Assembly (NCBI GenBank): GCA_029337695.3 | Contig: GCA_029337695.3_4851.1 | Direction: 5' to 3' (one strand) | Length of the DNA stretch: 46,785 nucleotides | From: a phage | In this document: one piece after another, positions 2,477 through 45,915 of the stretch | How the letters are laid out: each line of letters starts with the position of its first letter | How positions within the stretch are numbered: position 1 is the first letter of the stretch | Notes under the pieces: model-generated | Seen by the model: only the letters and a program-made list of their open reading frames with translations | What the model was told of the DNA's origin: nothing | Databases searched by the model: none | Translations under genes and position numbers: made by a program

Positions 2477-2756
2477 TGCTAGCTCGCCATTGAGCTTCAC
2501 CACAACGGAAAGAGCACTGAAACACACGTCTGTGTCGCCTGCGCAATGGGTTCGAGTTCCACTGATATGCGCCAATGCTCTTACCTGTTGTGTGCCGGTT
2601 ACGCGTCCGGCGTCTCTCGACCGCTAATTATTTTTGACTTCTTCAAATTGAGATTTCATTCATTTTGGTCACCTTCCTTTCAGAAAGTTGAAAACTCACG
2701 CATAAATCAATTCATATCTTAAGTAGACTTTAATCTACACCACAAAAATAGTAACT

Positions 2757-2776
2757 GTCAACACCTGTGATATAAT
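2757..2776 (+). promoter_or_regulatory. putative promoter with extended -10 (TGATATAAT) for the major tail operon
   Basis: TGTCAACACC...TGATATAAT about 40 bp upstream of the 2813 start; the same block recurs at 4150-4175; preceded by the AATCTACACCAC motif at 2732-2743. Confidence 0.5.
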
Positions 2777-4091: not shown

Positions 4092-4149
4092 AATTCACCT
4101 CAGTCATATCTCGTTTAGATGACTTGAATCTACATCACCACCTCGCAGG

Positions 4150-4175
4150 TGTCAACACCACTGAGATGATATAAT
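4150..4175 (+). promoter_or_regulatory. putative promoter with extended -10 (TGATATAAT)
   Basis: TGTCAACACC...TGATATAAT block identical to 2757-2776, preceded by AATCTACATCACC at 4128-4140. Confidence 0.5.
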
Positions 4176-4195
4176 CAACATCAGTCAAATTCAGG

Positions 4196-4912
4196 ATGCA
4201 AAACATGAGCAATCGCACGCCACTAACAGAAATCGGGGAGATGCGCATCTCACTGGCTGATAAGAGTTTTTTCTTTAAGCCATCATTCCGTGCCATGAAT
4301 GAAATCGGCACACCAAAAGAAATTGTCGAGGTGTACGCCAGACTCAATGGCATTGATTATGTTGCGCCATTGCAGCACGTCGAATACCTGCCATTTGGCG
4401 CGCAGATGCAGGTCATGAAGACCATCAGTAAACCTGTGTATGGTCGCCATGTGCTGAGCGCGGCCTATATTGTCATGCAGTCATGCTGTGAAGATGATAT
4501 TTCTGTGCTGATTGGTGGGTGGAAGCCAACACCGCGCGGCGTGCGATACGTACCGGGCATCATGCCAGTGAGCGACATTATTATTATTGCGCGCAATCTG
4601 ATGCAGCACGGCATCATCGGCAAGTCACCACTCAAAGTGCCTGAGCGCCTGGAAGAGCAAGGCAAGAAAACCACAAACGAGTTTCATGCGTCGCAATACA
4701 TCATCTCAGCACGCACGCATTTCGACATGACGCGAGATGAGGCCGAAAACCTGTCCATGACAGAGTTTCAGATGATGATTAAGAATAAATATCCAGAGCC
4801 GAAAGGGTTAACGAAAGAAGAGCGCGCGGCAGAGTACGATCAGGCTAAAGCAGACCGTGAGCGCATGAAGGCACTGGCTGAACGCAAAGCGAAAAAAGCG
4901 AGGAATACATAA
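4196..4912 (+). CDS. putative tail assembly chaperone
   Basis: 238-aa ORF between major tail protein and tape measure; basic C-terminus; no separate frameshift ORF apparent. Confidence 0.45.
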   Translation: MQNMSNRTPLTEIGEMRISLADKSFFFKPSFRAMNEIGTPKEIVEVYARLNGIDYVAPLQHVEYLPFGAQMQVMKTISKPVYGRHVLSAAYIVMQSCCEDDISVLIGGWKPTPRGVRYVPGIMPVSDIIIIARNLMQHGIIGKSPLKVPERLEEQGKKTTNEFHASQYIISARTHFDMTRDEAENLSMTEFQMMIKNKYPEPKGLTKEERAAEYDQAKADRERMKALAERKAKKARNT

Positions 4913-11091: not shown

Positions 11092-11130
11092 TACAATATA
11101 CATCAAATTCACAAAGGAGCATTCATTATA

Positions 11131-16807: not shown

Positions 16808-16844
16808 TGTTAACCTCACTCATCATCACGTAAATGAATCTACA

Positions 16845-17270
16845 TCAATCCACATCAAAAGGCAAGCCAAAATAGAAAAGTGTGGCTTTTTTTAGTTCAT
16901 CAAGACCGTAAGCGATGGCGGCATAATGACCAAGTCTGCACATCTCAGTTAACACAGAAGATTGCTCTTTACTTACTCTGCTTTTGCTTTTATCGCGACG
17001 CTTTGACTCAATCATCCCGCAACTGTGATTTACCCCAGGAGTCATTATCACGTTGTCGCCTATTCCAGTCTTAACTCCCATCTTCTGGCGCTTCAGCACA
17101 AACTGCACCATGCTTGATGTTCCAGTTTCGTTTGGTACATGAAACCACAGAACATCAGGAAAGCGGTGTTGCATCCATGTGCCGTAACCAATCTGTTCAG
17201 TCTCCTCTTTCGGACATTCTCCGCGATAACCGCTATCAAATACCCATATACCGCTATCAAGCTGCTTCAC
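16845..17270 (-). CDS. VRR-NUC domain nuclease
   Basis: 141 aa with HVPNETG...KRQKMGVKTGIGDNVIM fitting the VRR-NUC pattern; coupled to the helicase. Confidence 0.55.
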   Translation of the reverse strand: MKQLDSGIWVFDSGYRGECPKEETEQIGYGTWMQHRFPDVLWFHVPNETGTSSMVQFVLKRQKMGVKTGIGDNVIMTPGVNHSCGMIESKRRDKSKSRVSKEQSSVLTEMCRLGHYAAIAYGLDELKKATLFYFGLPFDVD

Positions 17271-19194: not shown

Positions 19195-19269
19195 AGCAAC
19201 TAACCTTTGTTGATGTTTCTACGTCAGTTAGCTTATACTCAATCTACACCAACAATCAAGGGCCAATTT

Positions 19270-22573: not shown

Positions 22574-22790
22574 CGAAATATGAGCACGTTCTGAATTTCA
22601 TCCCGAAATCCTCACCAACCCTTCCGAGACACGCGCGAAATCTTTCAACAGACAGCCCTTTATCTGCAATATCCTCATAAGAAATCGAATTAACCTGACC
22701 AACATCAATATGTTTTGCAACGCGATACACGAACTCCATCTTTGAACCGTCACGATACATTTTGTTTCTCATAGTAACCTCCATCCGCAT
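22542..22790 (-). CDS. hypothetical protein
   Basis: 82-aa ORF, first gene downstream of the iteron region on the minus strand. Confidence 0.4.
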   Translation of the reverse strand: MRMEVTMRNKMYRDGSKMEFVYRVAKHIDVGQVNSISYEDIADKGLSVERFRACLGRVGEDFGMKFRTCSYFDEVLHIKRVE

Positions 22791-22940
22791 CCTGTTAGCA
22801 ACTATAGATAAAAAATAAAATTAACGCAACACAAAACAGGGCTAACCAGCAACAACAGCTACCACACCTAACAACTGGTCAGACCACCATCTCGTATCTG
22901 ATGTATGTGGATGGTTCCCGTCGTTCAATTTGCACTCGAT

Positions 22941-23299
22941 TTTTACCTAATTTACCGTATATTTATTGGTCAGTTTTTTGCGTAACTAATTGATTTATAT
23001 GGTTTTACCGGTTTTACCGGAGCTCTAAGGAGTATTTTCATCATTGAGAGTAGTAGTATATTAATTGGTCTAATTTTTAAATAACCCTAATAAAATCAAT
23101 ATATTAATATAAGAAAGTAACTTACTTACTTATATAGGATTTACCGGGTAAAACCGGTAACTCCTCCGCAGCCCGCGTCATTACTGGATTGATTTTTACC
23201 ACCTGTAGGTAAATACAGTAGTTTTTAAGTCAGGATTGTTTTTGTAAGATGTTGATTACCGGTACTTTATTTGAAAAACCGGGATTTACCGGGTTTTTG
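22941..23299. repeat. AT-rich iteron array (TTTACCGG-type), candidate origin or regulatory region
   Basis: About 600 bp without ORFs; copies at 22941-22960, tandem GTTTTACCGG x2 at 23001-23020, inverted TTACCGG/CCGGTAA at 23141-23160, palindrome 23195-23215, TTACCGGTA at 23255-23264, ACCGGG repeats at 23275-23299. Confidence 0.6.
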
Positions 23300-23370
23300 T
23301 GGTGTGATTGATAATCGCGCAATTAGTCATGTTTCACCAGAGCTCACTGATGCGACACCTGAAAATCATA

Positions 23371-23400
23371 TTGACGTAGAATCACAACTGATGTAGATTG
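23371..23400 (+). promoter_or_regulatory. putative early promoter with two inverted copies of the AATCTAC motif
   Basis: TTGACGTAGAAT (23371-23382) and TGATGTAGATTG (23389-23400) upstream of the first + early gene. Confidence 0.45.
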
Positions 23401-23429
23401 AACTCATCGAAACAAACGAGGGTGAAGAG

Positions 23430-23615
23430 ATGAAAGAGGAAAGCACGTACGACATCGACCAGATGAAGTTGTTCAGCGATATATGCATGGCATTGTCACA
23501 ACAGGTTCCAAGCCTTCCTGCTGACACGCGTTCAAATGCCATCATTGATGCAGCAAACATGATTTGCGAGGCTTATGCGATGAGTGAAGATGAATACAAG
23601 GCTTTGAAGAAATGA
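23430..23615 (+). CDS. hypothetical early protein
   Basis: 61-aa ORF, first of a coupled series of small ORFs. Confidence 0.4.
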   Translation: MKEESTYDIDQMKLFSDICMALSQQVPSLPADTRSNAIIDAANMICEAYAMSEDEYKALKK

Positions 23616-25776: not shown

Positions 25777-27201
25777 ATGGCTCGTAAACGCCTCTCCGCA
25801 CTGGCAATCGAAAAACTGGAAGCGCAGATTGATGACGCGATGACTGATGTTGCAGAGTCCGCCATCTTCGGCATCTGCGACATGCAGAAGAACGTCATTA
25901 AGCGGTTAAGGATGACAGCTACTGGCGTTGATGATGTGACTAATGCAACCACTCATGCCGATCACCTGATTCCCGCAAAACTTGAACGCCTGCTTTATCC
26001 GAAGCGTTTTAAGTTTGTCTACGGTGGTCGCGGGTCAGGGAAAACGAGAACTATTATCACTATCCTTACTGAAAGGGCAAGATTTCGACCTGACCGCTTC
26101 GCCTGCTTTCGTGAGATTCAGCAATCCATTGAGGATTCAAGCTATCAGGAGCTGGTGGATGAGATAGCCCGCAAGGGAGAGTCGGCAGAGTTTCGCGTTG
26201 TCAACAACGAGATAACACACAAGAAGACCAAAGCGAAGTTTCGCTTCAAAGGGCTGTATCGCAATCAGACAACAGTTAAGGGTTTTGCTGGCATTACCGT
26301 CGGTTGGGTAGAGGAAGCAGAGAACGTCAGCCAGACAAGCTGGGATATTCTTGTACCTACCATCCGCGCCGCTAATTCCGAGCTGTGGTGCTCATTCAAC
26401 CCCAACAAGGAAACAGACCCGACATGGAAGAACTGGATTGCTCCATATCACTCACGGATGGTTGATGGCATATTCGAAAATGATGAAATTCTGATTATCG
26501 AATGTAACTATTCCGACAATCCGTGGTTCTGGGATACGCCGCTGCCATCAGCCATGGAGCAAATGAAGCGAACTGATTACGACCGTTATCGCTGGATTTG
26601 GATGGGAGCATTCAACAAGCGCAGCGACGAGCAGGTTTTTGGTGGCAAGTGGCGCATTGATAACTTCGAGGTCAAACCTGAATGGCACGGGCCATACTTC
26701 GGGATGGACTTCGGGTTTTCCACCGATCCTACCGCAATGGTTGAAGTGTACATCGAAGAGTTACCAGGTGGACGGCGTAACATTTATATTAATCGCGAGT
26801 ACGGCAAAGTTGGCCTTGAAATTACCGATACGCCAGCTGCGATGGAGCAATCATTTCCGATGGCTAAGCGCGCACGATGGTATGCCGACTGTGCGCGACC
26901 AGAAACCATCAGCCACATCAAGCGTTCTGGATTCGATATTCACCCGTGCACAAAATGGCCCGGGAGTGTTGATGATGGCGTAACGTGGCTGCGCGGTTGT
27001 GACAGCATCATCATTCACGAGAGATGCAAGGAAATGCAGAATGAGGCGGCGATGTACAGCTATAAGGTTGATAAGCTGACCGGGAATGTACTGACTGATA
27101 TTGTTGATGCATTTAACCACTTCTGGGATGCGGTTCGTTACGCCCTCAATGACCACATCGTTCAGCGCGGAAGCGGAATGCTAATCCGCCGCAGGCGATA
27201 A
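25777..27201 (+). CDS. terL: terminase large subunit
   Basis: Walker A YGGRGSGKTRT, Walker B-like VGWVEEAE, C-terminal nuclease-like region. Confidence 0.85.
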   Translation: MARKRLSALAIEKLEAQIDDAMTDVAESAIFGICDMQKNVIKRLRMTATGVDDVTNATTHADHLIPAKLERLLYPKRFKFVYGGRGSGKTRTIITILTERARFRPDRFACFREIQQSIEDSSYQELVDEIARKGESAEFRVVNNEITHKKTKAKFRFKGLYRNQTTVKGFAGITVGWVEEAENVSQTSWDILVPTIRAANSELWCSFNPNKETDPTWKNWIAPYHSRMVDGIFENDEILIIECNYSDNPWFWDTPLPSAMEQMKRTDYDRYRWIWMGAFNKRSDEQVFGGKWRIDNFEVKPEWHGPYFGMDFGFSTDPTAMVEVYIEELPGGRRNIYINREYGKVGLEITDTPAAMEQSFPMAKRARWYADCARPETISHIKRSGFDIHPCTKWPGSVDDGVTWLRGCDSIIIHERCKEMQNEAAMYSYKVDKLTGNVLTDIVDAFNHFWDAVRYALNDHIVQRGSGMLIRRRR

Positions 27202-27217
27202 ATCTTCATCACCACAC

Positions 27218-27257
27218 TTGACCAATCTACACCGAGCGCATAGTATAATCTACATCA
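27218..27257 (+). promoter_or_regulatory. putative promoter (TTGACC ... TATAAT) with two direct AATCTACA motif copies
   Basis: TTGACC 27218-27223, AATCTACACC 27224-27233, TATAAT 27244-27249, AATCTACATCA 27247-27257. Confidence 0.5.
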
Positions 27258-27278
27258 GGCTTACCGGAGATATCACTA

Positions 27279-27485
27279 TGCGCAGCTATGCAGGATTCAC
27301 ACAGGAGGAAAAAGAACAGGTTTATTCACTGGCGCGGGCTGGCGTGCCTGACGAGGTGATTTGCCGTCGGTATGACATCGACGAGGATTTTCTGCTGCGC
27401 GTTCTGGATGATGTTTTCGTCAACCTGCAAGAAAAGCGAGGGTATAAGGGTATCTGCTGCAAGAATGATTTTTTGAGAGGGTGAT
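27279..27485 (+). CDS. hypothetical protein
   Basis: 68-aa ORF (MRSYAGFTQEEKEQ...) downstream of the promoter. Confidence 0.4.
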
Positions 27486-30431: not shown

Positions 30432-30525
30432 TATAATAACAAATGCAGCTAGTCCGGCCAGATGAAAAGGTGAACGTAGACACCCTGCTGCATCCTCAAT
30501 CTACGAACCTACTACGGGGTTACTC

Positions 30526-33936: not shown

Positions 33937-33991
33937 TGATGTAGATACTATGCACCACCACTCAATCTACGTCAATACCTGTTGTGATAGA
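33937..33991 (+). promoter_or_regulatory. divergent promoter region with inverted AATCTAC motifs and extended -10 (TGTGATAGAAT)
   Basis: TGATGTAGATA (33937-33947) and AATCTACGTCAA (33963-33974), then TGTTGTGATAGAAT upstream of the endolysin. Confidence 0.5.
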
Positions 33992-34019
33992 ATTAATCAT
34001 TATTTGAACAGGAGGCAGA

Positions 34020-35688: not shown

Positions 35689-35812
35689 ATTGGTTTGTTC
35701 AGATTCTTCCCGCTGCTTCCACATCTGCTTCAGCTGAAAATAAGCATACGCCTCATCACCATCTTTCGCATTGCGCTCCATTTGTTCACACCATGCAGAT
35801 GGTTTTGGTGGC

Positions 35813-36121
35813 TCACTCTGCTGGCAATGTTGCTGGCTCATCAACAGATTCCTCAGTCGCAGTTTCAACGATGCGCACCAACGAACACTCAAGGTTCGGC
35901 GCATTGTAATTGCCAGCCAGAAACAGCACGCTACCAGTGCTAATCAGCACCTGCTTTGCGTTCGATTGCGACAGATTCTGCACGATGAATTGCGCTGTTT
36001 CCGTGCCGATTTTCAGCACTGCGCTGCCGTCGCTATTCAGTGATACCAGCTGCGCGGAAGTGTCAGTAATGTTGGTGAAGTTCGCGTTTCGCTGCGCGAT
36101 TGTGATGTCGCAAAAAGACAT
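35813..36121 (-). CDS. hypothetical protein
   Basis: 102-aa ORF coupled to the upstream gene. Confidence 0.4.
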   Translation of the reverse strand: MSFCDITIAQRNANFTNITDTSAQLVSLNSDGSAVLKIGTETAQFIVQNLSQSNAKQVLISTGSVLFLAGNYNAPNLECSLVRIVETATEESVDEPATLPAE

Positions 36122-36759
36122 TATTTAATCTCCAGTTCTTTTGCGCGAATTGCGCTGTCAATGATGTCCTGTAAATCTTGTTCGCGTGATTTGTGTCCGC
36201 GCTCGCCAGCTTGCAACGCCTTCTTGATCAAATGCTGCAATGCTGGGTTGGTGACATTCCACGCCATGAGCACGTCATACACGTCAACAAAAATACCAGG
36301 CCTAATTTCGTGCAGGTATTTGTTTCCAAGTTGCGCCTCATGCCATTTCCCGTCGATGTGGGCCTCGCCAACTTTAACTGGCTTGCATCGGCAATTGGTG
36401 TGACCAAAGGTTGGATATCCTTCAGGCAAGAAATCACCAACAAATGATTTGGTGCTTGCAATGAACCCGCCTCGCTTCACATCCGCTTCCGGTGCGCCAA
36501 TGCATTCATTGAGATCTTGTTCGTCGTCTGCTACTGGCTCACGAATGCCAACTAAAAACCAATTCTCATTATTGCCTATGAAATATGTGTTCTTTTTGTT
36601 TGGCTCCCACATGGTTGCATGAGTTTCCAGTTTTTCGCACCACGCTAAGCGACCATCCATTTTGTGTCGTATTGCTAAGCGCACATTTGCTGGCGCTCCA
36701 ACAAAATCGCAGGCGCTACCTTTAAGCAATCTGTATCTTGTTGTCATTTCTCTCTCCAC
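36121..36759 (-). CDS. hypothetical protein with DUF3310-like C-terminal region
   Basis: 212 aa; C-terminal FVDVYDVLMAWNVTNPALQHLIKKALQAGERGHKSREQDLQDIIDSAIR resembles DUF3310; N-terminal half unassigned. Confidence 0.4.
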   Translation of the reverse strand: MEREMTTRYRLLKGSACDFVGAPANVRLAIRHKMDGRLAWCEKLETHATMWEPNKKNTYFIGNNENWFLVGIREPVADDEQDLNECIGAPEADVKRGGFIASTKSFVGDFLPEGYPTFGHTNCRCKPVKVGEAHIDGKWHEAQLGNKYLHEIRPGIFVDVYDVLMAWNVTNPALQHLIKKALQAGERGHKSREQDLQDIIDSAIRAKELEIK

Positions 36760-37004
36760 TTAATCATCTCGTGTCGCGGCATTGTGACGCGGTTGTATTC
36801 ATCAACATTAAAATTCGCCCGAATCAAATCATACATATCATCTTTAGGCATATCAGCCAGCGCCACATAGCAACGGGCAAAGTAGCGAACATCACGGAGT
36901 GTCAGCGGCTGCCGCTTCTCCACAATGCTGGTGATAATGTCCATCGGCTCTCGTCGTGGTCTTGGCATATTTACTACTCCTTTTCGAAAATTATTGTTGA
37001 CCAA
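36744..37004 (-). CDS. hypothetical protein
   Basis: 86-aa ORF, first gene of the minus operon next to the divergent promoter. Confidence 0.4.
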   Translation of the reverse strand: MVNNNFRKGVVNMPRPRREPMDIITSIVEKRQPLTLRDVRYFARCYVALADMPKDDMYDLIRANFNVDEYNRVTMPRHEMIKWREK

Positions 37005-37041
37005 TCTACATCATTTAGTCAATACTTATTGACGTAGATTG
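36998..37041 (+). promoter_or_regulatory. promoter (TTGACC-17 bp-AATACT) with motif in the spacer and an inverted copy downstream
   Basis: TTGACCAATCTACATCA (36998-37014), -10 AATACT (37021-37026), inverted TTGACGTAGATTG (37029-37041). Confidence 0.55.
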
Positions 37042-37067
37042 TACCACAACGGAAAAGGTGATGTGGA

Positions 37068-37271
37068 ATGAGTGCAGAAAAAGTAATAACAGAAAGATGT
37101 GAGTATTTACGCTCCATGCTTGAAGCTCGCGGAGTTAGCGCTGAAGACATTGACCTATGTCTTACGCACCTCACAAACGCGGTCCTTGAGGGATATCATC
37201 AGGGGCAGGTAGATTACTCGACTGGGGTGCTTCCTGAACTACTGAGAATGGCAACGGTTGGTAAATTTTGA
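37068..37271 (+). CDS. hypothetical protein
   Basis: 67-aa ORF, first of a series of small early-type genes. Confidence 0.4.
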   Translation: MSAEKVITERCEYLRSMLEARGVSAEDIDLCLTHLTNAVLEGYHQGQVDYSTGVLPELLRMATVGKF

Positions 37272-37476
37272 GGAATACACAATGACAACTGACGAATTGT
37301 ACGAAAAATCATTAATTCAGCGACTGAATGAAGTCGAGCGTACTCGCGAATGGCTGGAATGCGAGCTGCGTGAGGTGCGTAACCGTCTGCAACGCAAACG
37401 CAGTCAGCAGAAAGATGTTATCGACTGGTCAGGTGATACGCCGAAATTTAATAATCTTGGGGAGTGGATAAAATGA
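37258..37476 (+). CDS. hypothetical coiled-coil protein
   Basis: 72-aa ORF. Confidence 0.4.
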   Translation: MVNFEEYTMTTDELYEKSLIQRLNEVERTREWLECELREVRNRLQRKRSQQKDVIDWSGDTPKFNNLGEWIK

Positions 37477-37724
37477 CAACGCCACATATGCCGATGATGA
37501 ATGAACATGGATTCTTGAGCTGCCCATTCTGTGGTTGTGATGATGTTGGTATTGCCATAGATGAGGATGGGTGGGAATACATAGAATGCGGGGATTGTTA
37601 TTGCCGTACAGACGCATTCCGTAACAGAGAACTAATGACTAAGTCATGGAATACTCGCAACGGACACCTATACACCACAGAAGACTTCAATCAGGCAGCA
37701 GAGGAACGCGATCATGGACTATAA
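37464..37724 (+). CDS. Lar-family restriction alleviation protein (zinc-ribbon)
   Basis: LSCPFCGCDDVGIAIDEDGWEYIECGDCYC...WNTRNG fits the Lar pattern (CPFCG...C..C...WN.R). Confidence 0.55.
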   Translation: MDKMTTPHMPMMNEHGFLSCPFCGCDDVGIAIDEDGWEYIECGDCYCRTDAFRNRELMTKSWNTRNGHLYTTEDFNQAAEERDHGL

Positions 37725-38202
37725 ATCACAAATTATGCGCGTGATTATGATGCATCCCGGCGCAACGCGTGCATATATTGAAAAGCATTGCGGAGGAAAG
37801 CATTCAAGCACCACGACGCATCGTTTGCATGAGATGCTTGCGCTTGGCTTTATTCGTCGCGAGAAGTCAGTGATTCGTGGCGGTAAGTGGCAGTATAAAT
37901 ATTTCATCTCTGAGGACGCGGCAGGTATTGATGATGCGATTAAGTGTCATTTGCTTGGTAACGCTGGCGCAGAGGTGAAAGAAATCATCGCGGCCACTGG
38001 CATTGACTACAGAATCGCGAAAAGCCGCATTCGCATTATGTTTCATAACGGCGATGTGACGCGAAGCTATGACCACCACAAGAAATTGTGGCGTTACTCA
38101 TGGCATGAAAAGGAAATTAACGTCAGCAACCTGTTCAATTCACTTCTTCGCAACGCAAGAGGTCGTCATGGGAAAAGCGAAACGCAAGAAGAAAGAGTAT
38201 GA
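37714..38202 (+). CDS. putative winged-helix DNA-binding protein
   Basis: 162 aa with two helix-turn-helix-like segments and a basic C-terminus. Confidence 0.4.
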   Translation: MDYKSQIMRVIMMHPGATRAYIEKHCGGKHSSTTTHRLHEMLALGFIRREKSVIRGGKWQYKYFISEDAAGIDDAIKCHLLGNAGAEVKEIIAATGIDYRIAKSRIRIMFHNGDVTRSYDHHKKLWRYSWHEKEINVSNLFNSLLRNARGRHGKSETQEERV

Positions 38203-38750: not shown

Positions 38751-39083
38751 AGGTGAAAAAATGATTATCCAACTAAACGACATTATGAAAGCAGATATTA
38801 TTCAGCTTGAAGATTATGACATGCAACTGGCGTTTGAAATCGAAACTGTTGAACGCCAACTGCAATATGCGGATAAGAAGAATGACCGCGTCTGACATGA
38901 GAAAGCGCTTAAGGCACGCGACCACATGAAGCGCACACGAGCACTAATCAAAACTAGATTGGATAAGCTGTATTTTGGCGAGGAAAGGATGATTCACGGA
39001 GCTATTCTGGCGCAAATCCGTAAGGAAATGCCTATTGGCAAGTTCATGTCTTACGTTCACCGCGCAAAACAGGAGGCTGGGTT

Positions 39084-39272
39084 ATGAGCGAACCAAAATT
39101 TCCAGAATTGCCAGTGGAGGTTCAGGTTGCATTGATTAATGCAGCAAGTGCAATGGCGACAAAGAAGATTGAGGCAATAGGCAGTGATTACAACAGGAAC
39201 ATAGACTGGTTTCAGAGGGAGTATCAAAAAATCTGCGACGCACTCTACAAAGAAAACAGGGGTAGACCATGA
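39084..39272 (+). CDS. hypothetical protein
   Basis: 62-aa ORF with a GGAGG RBS. Confidence 0.4.
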   Translation: MSEPKFPELPVEVQVALINAASAMATKKIEAIGSDYNRNIDWFQREYQKICDALYKENRGRP

Positions 39273-43725: not shown

Positions 43726-44262
43726 CTACAGACGCATAGGCATAACAACAATCTTCGCAGTCTCGCCAGTTGGCGCACTAAGACAGCAAACTGCGGCATT
43801 TGTGTTTCCATTCAATTCAAACTTAACGACACAGAATTTAGGGTTAAACAGCTTGGCCACTTTCTCAACATCAACAAGATAGCCAGCATTGAAGCCGATT
43901 TCCTCTGTTGGCGAGGTCTGCTTCGGAATGATGCGGTCAATATCCGGGAATCGTCCGTCAATCTCTTCGCAGATACCAGTGCCAACCATCACGCCAGCTT
44001 CATCATGATACGTTGCAATTTTCGACTTTGTATCAATAATGGCGTAGTCATAGCGTTTTGTCGGAGACTTGCCAATCTTGATAATCACATTTTCTGTCAG
44101 CTTATTGTCATGACTGCCACCAATGAATGCGCGACGACCGTCAGTTGATGCAATACGACCATCAGGCATAAAGCAGATGCCGTTCAGGTAGTAACGCACA
44201 TCATTGCGCGCCTGAAATATTAATGCTGACTCAAGTAATAATTTGCTGATTTTTAGTTTCAT
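43726..44262 (-). CDS. truncated beta sliding clamp (DnaN) homolog: domain II plus C-terminal part of domain III
   Basis: 178 aa from the ATG. ARNDVRYYLNGICFM, ASTDGRRAF, IDGRFPDIDRIIPKQ, EIGFNAGYLVDV and C-terminal KIVVMPMRL parallel E. coli DnaN blocks QDVRYYLNGMLFE, ATDGHRLA, DGRFPDYRRVLPKN, EIGFNVSYVLDV and YVVMPMRL (from memory); no domain I. Confidence 0.7.
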   Translation of the reverse strand: MKLKISKLLLESALIFQARNDVRYYLNGICFMPDGRIASTDGRRAFIGGSHDNKLTENVIIKIGKSPTKRYDYAIIDTKSKIATYHDEAGVMVGTGICEEIDGRFPDIDRIIPKQTSPTEEIGFNAGYLVDVEKVAKLFNPKFCVVKFELNGNTNAAVCCLSAPTGETAKIVVMPMRL

Positions 44263-44434: not shown

Positions 44435-44650
44435 TTGAGTTATCCTTGTGTCTAATTGAGATTTGTAAAACAAATCAATACTTCCAAATGCTTTGTATTC
44501 AAATTTACCATTTTCGCGGCAAACCCGCTTTTCAAACCCATAATTGTCATTATTTGCCGTCCATGTTGTCACAGATAAGAAACCACTAGCCTGGACTATT
44601 GCGCCATTACCATCCCTGTCGCCGAACTTTATAATTTTGTAACGCATCAC
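44432..44650 (-). CDS. hypothetical protein
   Basis: 72-aa ORF coupled between the ParB-like and downstream genes. Confidence 0.4.
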   Translation of the reverse strand: MMRYKIIKFGDRDGNGAIVQASGFLSVTTWTANNDNYGFEKRVCRENGKFEYKAFGSIDLFYKSQLDTRITQ

Positions 44651-45456
44651 ATCTTCTCCAGAATTGCCATAACCTCGTGAATGTCAGCAACAGGAATCTG
44701 GATAAACTCCTCATCCTCAGCCACCACATGACCAGCAGGAAGAATCACGTGATCTGCTTGCTTCAACAGCTCAATCAGGCGGTCTACTGGCTTAATCTTT
44801 TTGGACTTCAGCACTTTGGCTGTGACCTTATCCTTGCCTTGCGCCTTCGCTTCCTCGACTGCCTCGTCGATAACTTTAACCGCATCATCGCCATGTTCGC
44901 GCGTTACCGCTACGGCGTTTGCATAGCTGATTTGCCCTGCACTGATTCGTGCCTTCACTTCCGCTGGCAAATCACCCAATGACAGGTGCATTTGCACGTC
45001 AGATACTGAGCGACCTACCTTCTTAGCGATTTCCTCATTAGTCCAGCCAAAGCCTTTCAGTCGCGTGTAAGCCTTTGCACGTTCAAACGGGTCGAGCTGC
45101 TTGCCCTGGCTGGATGACACCATGAAGGCAATTTTATCCGCCTCATCGCCAGTGAAATCTTTGCACTCAATGCGAACGATTGGTGCGCCACGCTCAATGG
45201 CACGCAATGCGCCGAGATAGCGGTGCTGACCATCAAGAATGCGAATTCCCTTCTCGTCTGGAATAACTGTTAATGCTGGTAGTGGCTGGCCTGATTCCCA
45301 GCACTGCGCAAAATATTCAACGTGTTGCTCATCTGCTTCACGGATGTTGTATCCCGGCTCCAGATAAATTTGCTCCACTGGTACGAGATAGGTTTTGTTT
45401 ACCGCAATGCCGTTGCGCGTCTCTTTGTCTGAATAGATTTTGCTGAGTGTTTTCAT
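44647..45456 (-). CDS. ParB-like N-terminal domain protein with HTH
   Basis: ParB-box-like IRILDGQHRY and HTH segment WTNEEIAKKVGRSVSDVQMHLSL. Confidence 0.7.
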   Translation of the reverse strand: MKTLSKIYSDKETRNGIAVNKTYLVPVEQIYLEPGYNIREADEQHVEYFAQCWESGQPLPALTVIPDEKGIRILDGQHRYLGALRAIERGAPIVRIECKDFTGDEADKIAFMVSSSQGKQLDPFERAKAYTRLKGFGWTNEEIAKKVGRSVSDVQMHLSLGDLPAEVKARISAGQISYANAVAVTREHGDDAVKVIDEAVEEAKAQGKDKVTAKVLKSKKIKPVDRLIELLKQADHVILPAGHVVAEDEEFIQIPVADIHEVMAILEKM

Positions 45457-45821: not shown

Positions 45822-45867
45822 TTGCTTCTACGTCACTAACTATAAACGCCACATCAATCTACGTCAA
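45822..45867 (+). promoter_or_regulatory. divergent promoter region with two AATCTACGTCA motif copies
   Basis: TTCTACGTCAC (45822-45836) and CAATCTACGTCAA (45855-45867) between divergent operons. Confidence 0.45.
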
Positions 45868-45915
45868 CAGGAATATGCTAAAATCATGCTAATCAAACAA
45901 CAGGAGATTTAAGCA

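Follow-up and report, generated by a model that had tools for sequence, protein, structure and literature searches.

Several known systems control promoters through short DNA elements read by a dedicated protein. In mycobacteriophage L5 and cluster A phages, gp71, probably a monomeric helix-turn-helix (HTH) protein, reportedly recognizes asymmetric operators or ‘stoperators’ of 11–13 bp that are present in some 20–30 copies. Nearly all of the L5 sites are said to lie in short intergenic regions, with some of them over promoters. The KorB/KorA regulon of IncP-1 plasmids reuses one short operator at 12 promoters of a small replicon and at several distances from the core promoter elements, and its operators are palindromic and bound by dimers. 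The MotA box of phage T4, a feature of middle promoters with a good −10 and part of sigma appropriation together with AsiA, is asymmetric, 9–11 bp long, and read by a monomer near −30, where it replaces the −35 hexamer in a fixed position and orientation. The sites of phi29 p4 and lambda CI are dyad-symmetric and local.

The element considered here, AATCTACRYCA (the box), recurs in a 46,785-nucleotide stretch of phage DNA that is called the window throughout (contig GCA_029337695.3_4851.1 of NCBI GenBank assembly GCA_029337695.3). The sequence pattern tips slightly toward a dispersed operator for a phage-encoded regulator, which would probably bind as a monomer and either occlude or toggle overlapping promoters.

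The Phage and Its Relatives

The window is about 90% identical to siphophages of Escherichia, Salmonella, and Klebsiella with genomes of 45–48 kb, namely Bas77–81, Skate, IME207, ZCEC08, and C1. Skate belongs to the genus Skatevirus in the NCBI taxonomy, and the window is a Skatevirus-like virulent siphophage and not a member of the Guernseyvirinae. A Guernseyvirinae/Kagunavirus identity was rejected because Jersey, K1G, and Golestan differ in gene order and have their own DNA polymerase, and because phages of the Golestan and fBC-Eco01 type carry another repeated motif, TAATAGnnTACTATTCA, without a strong copy of the box. Jersey and Golestan have no site of at least 13 bits, and K1G has three weaker ones, none of them at 16 bits. 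The TAATAGnnTACTATTCA motif, an intergenic repeat of Kagunavirus that is unrelated to the box, was reported by PHIRE as a ‘phage promoter’ (PMC7203180, PMC9825357). The Kagunavirus phages that carry it encode no RNA polymerase; by analogy, the repeat may constitute a comparable operator network.

The Skate-like group is described in the literature as lytic small siphoviruses. They have been widely isolated as biocontrol agents against Salmonella, E. coli, and Klebsiella, and the BASEL collection now includes them. The annotations of the relatives Bas80, Skate, and K1M list neither an RNA polymerase nor a full sigma factor or an integrase, and no immunity repressor is annotated in any relative. 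Because no RNA polymerase or full sigma factor is annotated, transcription of the whole phage must fall to the host polymerase. A literature search that included the motif strings returned no account of the box or of transcription control in Skate-like phages, the sole motif-string match being a chance match to a primer. A regulatory circuit based on the box would be new for these phages.

Distribution and Consensus of the Box

An earlier note on this DNA had described the box as a conserved element at promoter regions genome-wide, and a motif search with background control confirms the description. With at most one mismatch, AATCTACRYCA matches the window 18 times against 2.95 expected (standard deviation 1.7; maximum 9 among 100 dinucleotide shuffles), and, with a weight matrix derived from 17 sites, 24 matches reach ≥11 bits compared with 5.4 in Markov simulations. 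As had also been claimed, almost all copies are intergenic, and coding DNA is not equally rich in them. On a curated gene map, 19 of the 21 sites of ≥12 bits fall in the non-coding DNA that makes up 9.4% of the window (binomial P = 5 × 10−18), and a box is present in seven of the eight divergent intergenic regions. The coordinates first assigned to the copies are correct within 1–2 bases, except that one of the eleven loci listed is not real: the pair at 30474–30484 and 30497–30509 scores ≤3.9 bits and is a partial chance match. Four weaker copies were absent from that list, at 4173 (AATCAACATCA), 11095 (AATATACATCA), 27201 (AATCTTCATCA), and, on the minus strand, 37059 (ATTCCACATCA).

The box is asymmetric, non-palindromic, and 11–12 bp long, with the extended consensus T-S-AATCTAC-R-Y-CA-a. 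Positions T3, C7, and C10 never vary, and C4, A6, and A11 hardly do. Single copies and direct repeats both occur. Pairs are direct or inverted, as had been noted, with both inverted arrangements represented, and the range of distances is wider than the 18–25 bp first given, with neighboring copies 10, 17, 23, 23, 25, 27, 27, 29, 31, and 46 bases apart from start to start. A strict orientation rule, tried both ways, holds in neither: between co-directional genes, copies point with transcription at 27201–27257 and 11095 and against it at 16837–16857. A role at the RNA level was likewise rejected, as Rfam finds a tRNA only and a flipped copy in K1M argues against a hairpin formed from inverted pairs.

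Promoters Around the Boxes

Promoters were called by an independent sigma-70 consensus scan and by direct reading of the sequence. At 2732–2742 (+), the box AATCTACACCA, located by motif and matrix searches and by sequence reading, supplies through its reverse complement the −10 TAGATT of a leftward promoter. The −35 of this promoter, TTGACA at 2761–2756, is separated by an 18-nt spacer, and the spacing is conserved in VLCpiS13d and K1M. A rightward extended −10 without a −35, TGaTATAAT at 2768–2776 (+), lies upstream of the major tail gene at 2813 and is conserved in the alignment. The box AATCTACATCA at 4127–4137 (+), from the motif and matrix searches, supplies TAGATT in the same way to a leftward promoter (−35 TTGACA at 4155–4150, 17-nt spacer) that drives genes 4091–3560. 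Upstream of the tail gene at 4205, the rightward extended −10 TGaTATAAT at 4167–4175 (+) is overlapped by the weak box AATCAACATCA at 4173–4183. An extended block, TGTCAACACC...TGATATAAT, that two sites had been said to share is real at 2756–2776 and 4150–4175; it is the reverse complement of the leftward −35 (TTGACA) together with the rightward extended −10 (TGaTATAAT).

The leftward promoter TTGACA-N18-TAGATT (2761–2732) points at a tRNA-Met gene, 2199–2275 (−), that lies about 450 bp downstream of it. Small plus-strand ORFs annotated by relatives within 2276–2812 may be leader or regulatory DNA and not genes, and the small plus-strand ORFs annotated over some box regions are probably regulatory DNA as well.

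Between the tail protein and tailspike genes is a weaker box, AATATACATCA at 11095–11105 (+; 14.3 bits), which is conserved in Bas80 and Skate. The matrix search finds two overlapping boxes, AATCTACATCA and AATCCACATCA, at 16837–16857 (+). Read in reverse complement, the first gives the leftward promoter of the exonuclease VIII/ERF/SSB operon its −10 TAGATT, with −35 TTGCCT at 16865–16860, and the VLCpiS13d counterpart has TTGATG at an equal 17-nt spacing. The primase promoter, 19210–19251 (+), runs from a −35 TTGATG (19210–19215) through the box TTTCTACGTCA (19216–19226) and a −10 TATACT (19234–19239) to the box AATCTACACCA (19241–19251). Upstream of the gene at 23430, the rightward promoter TTGACG-N17-TAGATT at 23371–23399 (+) is made wholly of two minus-strand boxes, 23372–23382 and 23389–23399; the independent scan calls it, and its design is repeated in Bas80, Skate, and K1M.

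Beside the primase and helicase genes, a 645-bp non-coding stretch (22785–23429) holds at least eight iteron-like units, (G/A)TTTACCGG, in both orientations (22941, 22950, 23001–23022, 23137, 23147–23160, 23191, 23256, and 23275–23298) and an AT-rich core at 23056–23135. By these features, it looks like a replication origin.

Three direct boxes, 23 bases apart from start to start, begin at 27201 (AATCTTCATCA), 27224, and 27247 and together span 27201–27257 (+). Amid them, the scan calls the plus-strand promoter TTGACC (27218)-N17-TAGTAT (27241–27246), just upstream of the gene at 27278. In the lysis divergent region, 33937–33993, the box at 33937–33947 (−) follows the leftward −10 CATAGT. The box at 33964–33974 (+) supplies the leftward −35 TTGACG (33975–33970), giving the minus-strand scan promoter TTGACG-17-CATAGT at 33975–33947, and lies 13 nt upstream of the hexamer of a rightward TGaTAGAAT (33985–33993). 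The equivalent of window 33937–33975 in the genome-reduced mutant seszw_260S, at 35790–35835, reads ttgacgtataGTATCTACATCA; about 18 bp of the window sequence are missing there, including most of one box copy.

Overlapping divergent promoters, conserved in the alignment, occupy 36993–37069. The scan calls the rightward TTGACC (36997)-N18-AATACT (37021–37026) and the leftward TTGACT (37022)-N18-AACAAT (36998–36993), and the box at 37003–37013 (+) lies within the spacers of both. The box at 37030–37040 (−) comes immediately after the rightward −10 and shares bases with a second leftward −10, TGgTACAAT at 37046–37038, which belongs to a scan promoter at 37067–37038. The same region contains the weak box ATTCCACATCA at 37059–37069 (−). 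Within the divergent region at 45825–45884, the box at 45856–45866 (+) supplies the leftward −35 TTGACG (45867–45862) that is paired with a −10 TATAGT (45844–45839). Another box, 45825–45835 (+), is just downstream of this −10, and the hexamer of a rightward extended −10, TGcTAAAAT (45876–45884), is 12 nt past the box at 45856–45866.

Conservation Among Related Phages

The box is found at syntenic intergenic positions, with an identical consensus, in four relatives: Bas80, Skate, Klebsiella phage VLCpiS13d, and Citrobacter phage K1M. Sites of ≥13 bits number 20 in Bas80 and 18 in Skate, and VLCpiS13d has kept at least 16 boxes. Capsid identity to the window is 79% for VLCpiS13d and 26% for K1M. 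In the intergenic alignments, the box and the promoter hexamers stand out from flanks that have diverged, and R and Y take the combinations AT, GT, AC, and GC without restriction. One copy in the early divergent region of K1M is inverted relative to the window with its position retained, and such a flip would also fit an operator. At the tail promoters of VLCpiS13d and K1M, the spacing from the box to TGTCAA stays at 17–18 nt, and the rightward TATAAT goes from 28–32 to 22–23 nt away from the box. A paired-box scan of IMG/VR returned 70 stretches, mostly on contigs of 45–50 kb that are apparently Skate-like, plus chance matches. The scan did not extend the family, and the partial phage 438212 is organized differently.

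Promoter Registers

Relative to the sigma-70 hexamers, the position of the box had been considered variable. Several positions and both orientations are indeed used, but they fall into four stereotyped registers and do not vary freely. In register (a), a forward box sits in the spacer abutting the −35, and the −10 follows after 5–8 nt, as at 19216, 27224, and 37003; a second copy often comes directly after the −10 (19241, 27247, and 37030). In register (b), a forward box ends 12–13 nt before the hexamer of an extended −10 that has no −35 (33964, TGaTAGAAT; 45856, TGcTAAAAT). The reversed box forms the −10 TAGATT in register (e), with a −35 16–18 nt upstream (2732 and 4127, both with a perfect TTGACA, 16837, and 23389). 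In register (f), the reversed box and the next base form the −35 TTGAYG, with the −10 16–18 nt on (23372, 33964, and 45856). Across 94 site instances in five genomes, which are not independent because the genomes are related, registers a, b, e, and f have counts of 9, 10, 21, and 18, compared with 0.1, 0.6, 2.3, and 1.4 for boxes in random genomic context.

The boxes of register (b) are centered near −30 (10 instances against 0.6), and their promoters precede lysis and head-tail genes in the window, Bas80, Skate, VLCpiS13d, and K1M. A positive promoter element would have this appearance: a phage factor, for example the product of the gene at 27278 (gp27278), would read the box and recruit or re-target the host RNA polymerase, resembling the T4 MotA box or the Mu Mor/C activators, which serve promoters with a good −10 and no −35. 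Most copies, however, are placed elsewhere: in a spacer next to a good −35, past the −10, or in reverse orientation. At the tail promoters, the spacing between the box and the rightward −10 also ranges from 22 to 32 nt among genomes, whereas the opposite-strand −35 lies at a constant distance. MotA and AsiA homologs do not appear in the annotations of Bas80, Skate, and K1M or among the best 25 of the 51 Pfam families of the window. A positive element is on balance an unlikely account of the box.

The reverse complement of the box holds a −35-like and a −10-like hexamer, and in 39 of the 94 site instances (about 40%) a hexamer of the box is used by an opposite-strand promoter. This would suit a box with no dedicated binder, in which the repeats amount to no more than duplicated promoter modules and recurring sigma-70 hexamers (TTGAYG and TAGATT). 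If sigma-70 hexamers were all that mattered, conservation should be restricted to the hexamer in use, but all 11 positions are kept whichever hexamer is used, or none, and also between co-directional genes. The full 11 bp, including C7, C10, and A11, persist where one or no hexamer is used (27224, 37003, 19216, and the co-directional intergenic copies), and the flanks outside the box diverge freely between genomes, which makes an element without a binder quite improbable. Inside the 17–18 bp spacers at 27224, 37003, and 19216, sigma-70 has no sequence requirement; the complete conservation of the box there therefore calls for a dedicated reader beyond hexamer contacts. The earlier note had taken the box for an operator and not a polymerase recognition element. 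The call for a reader agrees with the first half of that claim, but a box that supplies a hexamer in about 40% of sites is both a putative operator and a polymerase recognition element, and the either/or contrast was too sharp.

Candidate Binders

The most likely reader of the box, named here tentatively, is gp27278, a 68-aa protein (27278–27484, +) of three helices with a predicted sigma-region-4/LuxR-type HTH fold. Its gene is directly behind the densest box cluster, with three to four boxes adjoining. The gene occurs throughout the family and was retained in the genome-reduced mutants; it appears non-removable, as would be expected of an essential activator acting on a positive element. Also in line with a positive element, the modelled fold of gp27278 is similar to sigma region 4 and to the Mu late activator C; its fold matches include KorA, and the model is not MotA-like. 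Foldseek, Pfam, NCBIfam, and PDB sequence searches all gave no significant match. The protein is acidic (11 K+R, 13 D+E), and its predicted third helix, EDFLLRVLDDV, has one basic residue, unusually few for a recognition helix. Its VLCpiS13d ortholog shares 54% identity, with the box unchanged.

A second candidate is a winged-helix protein of 162 aa (wHTH; 37714–38202, +) assigned to phrog_1687, ‘MarR family’. Its model has an N-terminal winged helix (pLDDT ~75) with generic MarR-like matches, and its family is tiny, with 9 matches among 1.84 billion representatives. A genome-reduction study (PMC9825161) produced the viable 37.6-kb mutant seszw_260S, from which the gene is deleted. The VLCpiS13d ortholog has 35% identity to the protein and 3 of 16 recognition-helix residues in common with it, while the box is identical. 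The protein is disfavored as the binder because it is dispensable in seszw_260S and its recognition helix has diverged. A MarR-type operator predicts dyad symmetry and a conserved recognition helix, and neither is found. The protein seems to consist of two tandem winged-helix modules, residues 1–65 and 72–130, and a distant 812-aa homolog matches the second module in eight separate stretches.

A ParB/KorB-like HTH protein of 268 aa (44647–45456, −; Pfam HTH_ParB 5e-12, KorB 3.5e-6) was rejected as the binder because it is missing from VLCpiS13d, which retains the box. Another product of the ParB-like operon, of 177 aa (43726–44262, −), weakly matches the beta-clamp C-terminal domain of DNA polymerase III (E 0.005). 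Its ortholog is annotated as a beta subunit in K1M and as RusA-like in Skate, and its gene is deleted in the minimal mutant. Other small core proteins are encoded at 36744–36968, 37282–37476, and 38926–39087, and a sequence search of the first, gp36744, against solved structures was empty.

The candidate phage binders have diverged to 35–66% identity among relatives. That the box is nonetheless identical in phages of Escherichia, Salmonella, Klebsiella, and Citrobacter would be explained if the reader were a conserved protein of the Enterobacteriaceae that the phage makes use of or has to avoid. Speaking against a host regulon with paired sites, a search for paired boxes in about 100,000 species genomes gave 85 scattered matches and none in Enterobacteriaceae. 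To our knowledge, the box matches no E. coli regulator site; those of IHF, FNR, NarL, MetJ, RstA, and EvgA and the sigma-E and sigma-S elements do not fit. The consensus of the DnaA box is TTATNCACA, with C at position 6, which is critical, and A at position 9. An identity with the DnaA box was rejected, as the aligned sites have T at position 6 in 81 of 94 cases and A or G at position 9. A host factor is thus an unlikely binder.

Proposed Mechanism

The preferred reading is the dispersed operator. A sequence-specific DNA-binding protein encoded by the phage, probably acting as a monomer, would read each box as one asymmetric unit, and some 20 copies overlap core elements of practically every sigma-70-type promoter in the phage. 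Bound within the polymerase footprint, at the spacer, −35, −10, or start-site region, the protein would occlude the polymerase and shut the promoters. Occlusion is the simplest action because every strong copy falls within the polymerase-covered region of some promoter; protein binding and the sign of regulation are both inferred. Recognition of the whole asymmetric box with a steric action fits the sequence evidence, and contacts with hexamers only, hairpin formation, or an activator site at a strict position do not.

In four divergent regions (2732, 4127, 33964, and 45856), a canonical leftward promoter that takes its −35 or −10 from the box overlaps a rightward extended −10 promoter without a −35, and the rightward promoters precede genes of the tail, lysis, and head-tail groups. 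With the box occupied, the leftward unit would be silenced and the rightward one freed, or possibly stimulated, giving a temporal switch between early and late classes that are assigned from gene function alone.

A more specific version, which we consider doubtful, makes gp27278 a free-standing mimic of sigma region 4 that reads the box as a fused −35/−10 look-alike (T-TGAYG-TAGATT) and, through some 20 boxes, toggles a dozen overlapping sigma-70 promoters. If true, a single-domain sigma-4 mimic would be the master temporal switch of a virulent phage without its own polymerase or sigma factor. Binding by gp27278 would represent a new way for phages to control the host polymerase and provide a compact, portable operator/regulator pair for engineering. 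The box provides a map of about a dozen promoters and a testable circuit with three named candidates, two of them weakened by comparative and published deletion data.

Comparison with Known Systems

The copies at 33964 and 45856, and the corresponding ones in relatives, resemble the T4 MotA box in being asymmetric and near −30, in the place of a −35. The position and orientation that are fixed in T4 are not fixed here, however, as only 10 of the 94 instances have MotA geometry. The IncP-1 regulon shares the reuse of one short operator at several distances from core elements in a small replicon, and the window has a KorB/ParB-like gene as well as KorA among the fold matches of gp27278. In contrast to the palindromic KorB/KorA operators, the box is asymmetric, and the co-occurrence of gene and operator fails in VLCpiS13d, which has at least 16 boxes and no ParB-domain gene.

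At the divergent regions, as with phi29 p4 and lambda CI, one bound protein could silence one of two overlapping promoters and thereby favor the other; the boxes differ in being spread genome-wide, and the switch is one that we infer. With the L5 stoperators, the box shares its asymmetry, its multiple copies (21, of which 19 are non-coding), and its intergenic location. The L5 sites have one orientation relative to transcription, whereas both are used here and one copy is flipped in K1M. L5 is also temperate with gp71 as its immunity repressor, unlike the phage of the window, which is virulent and has no integrase, and no sequence relation is seen between the gp71 system and the box system. 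Each of the closest systems shares some features with the box, and in every one a defining feature fails.
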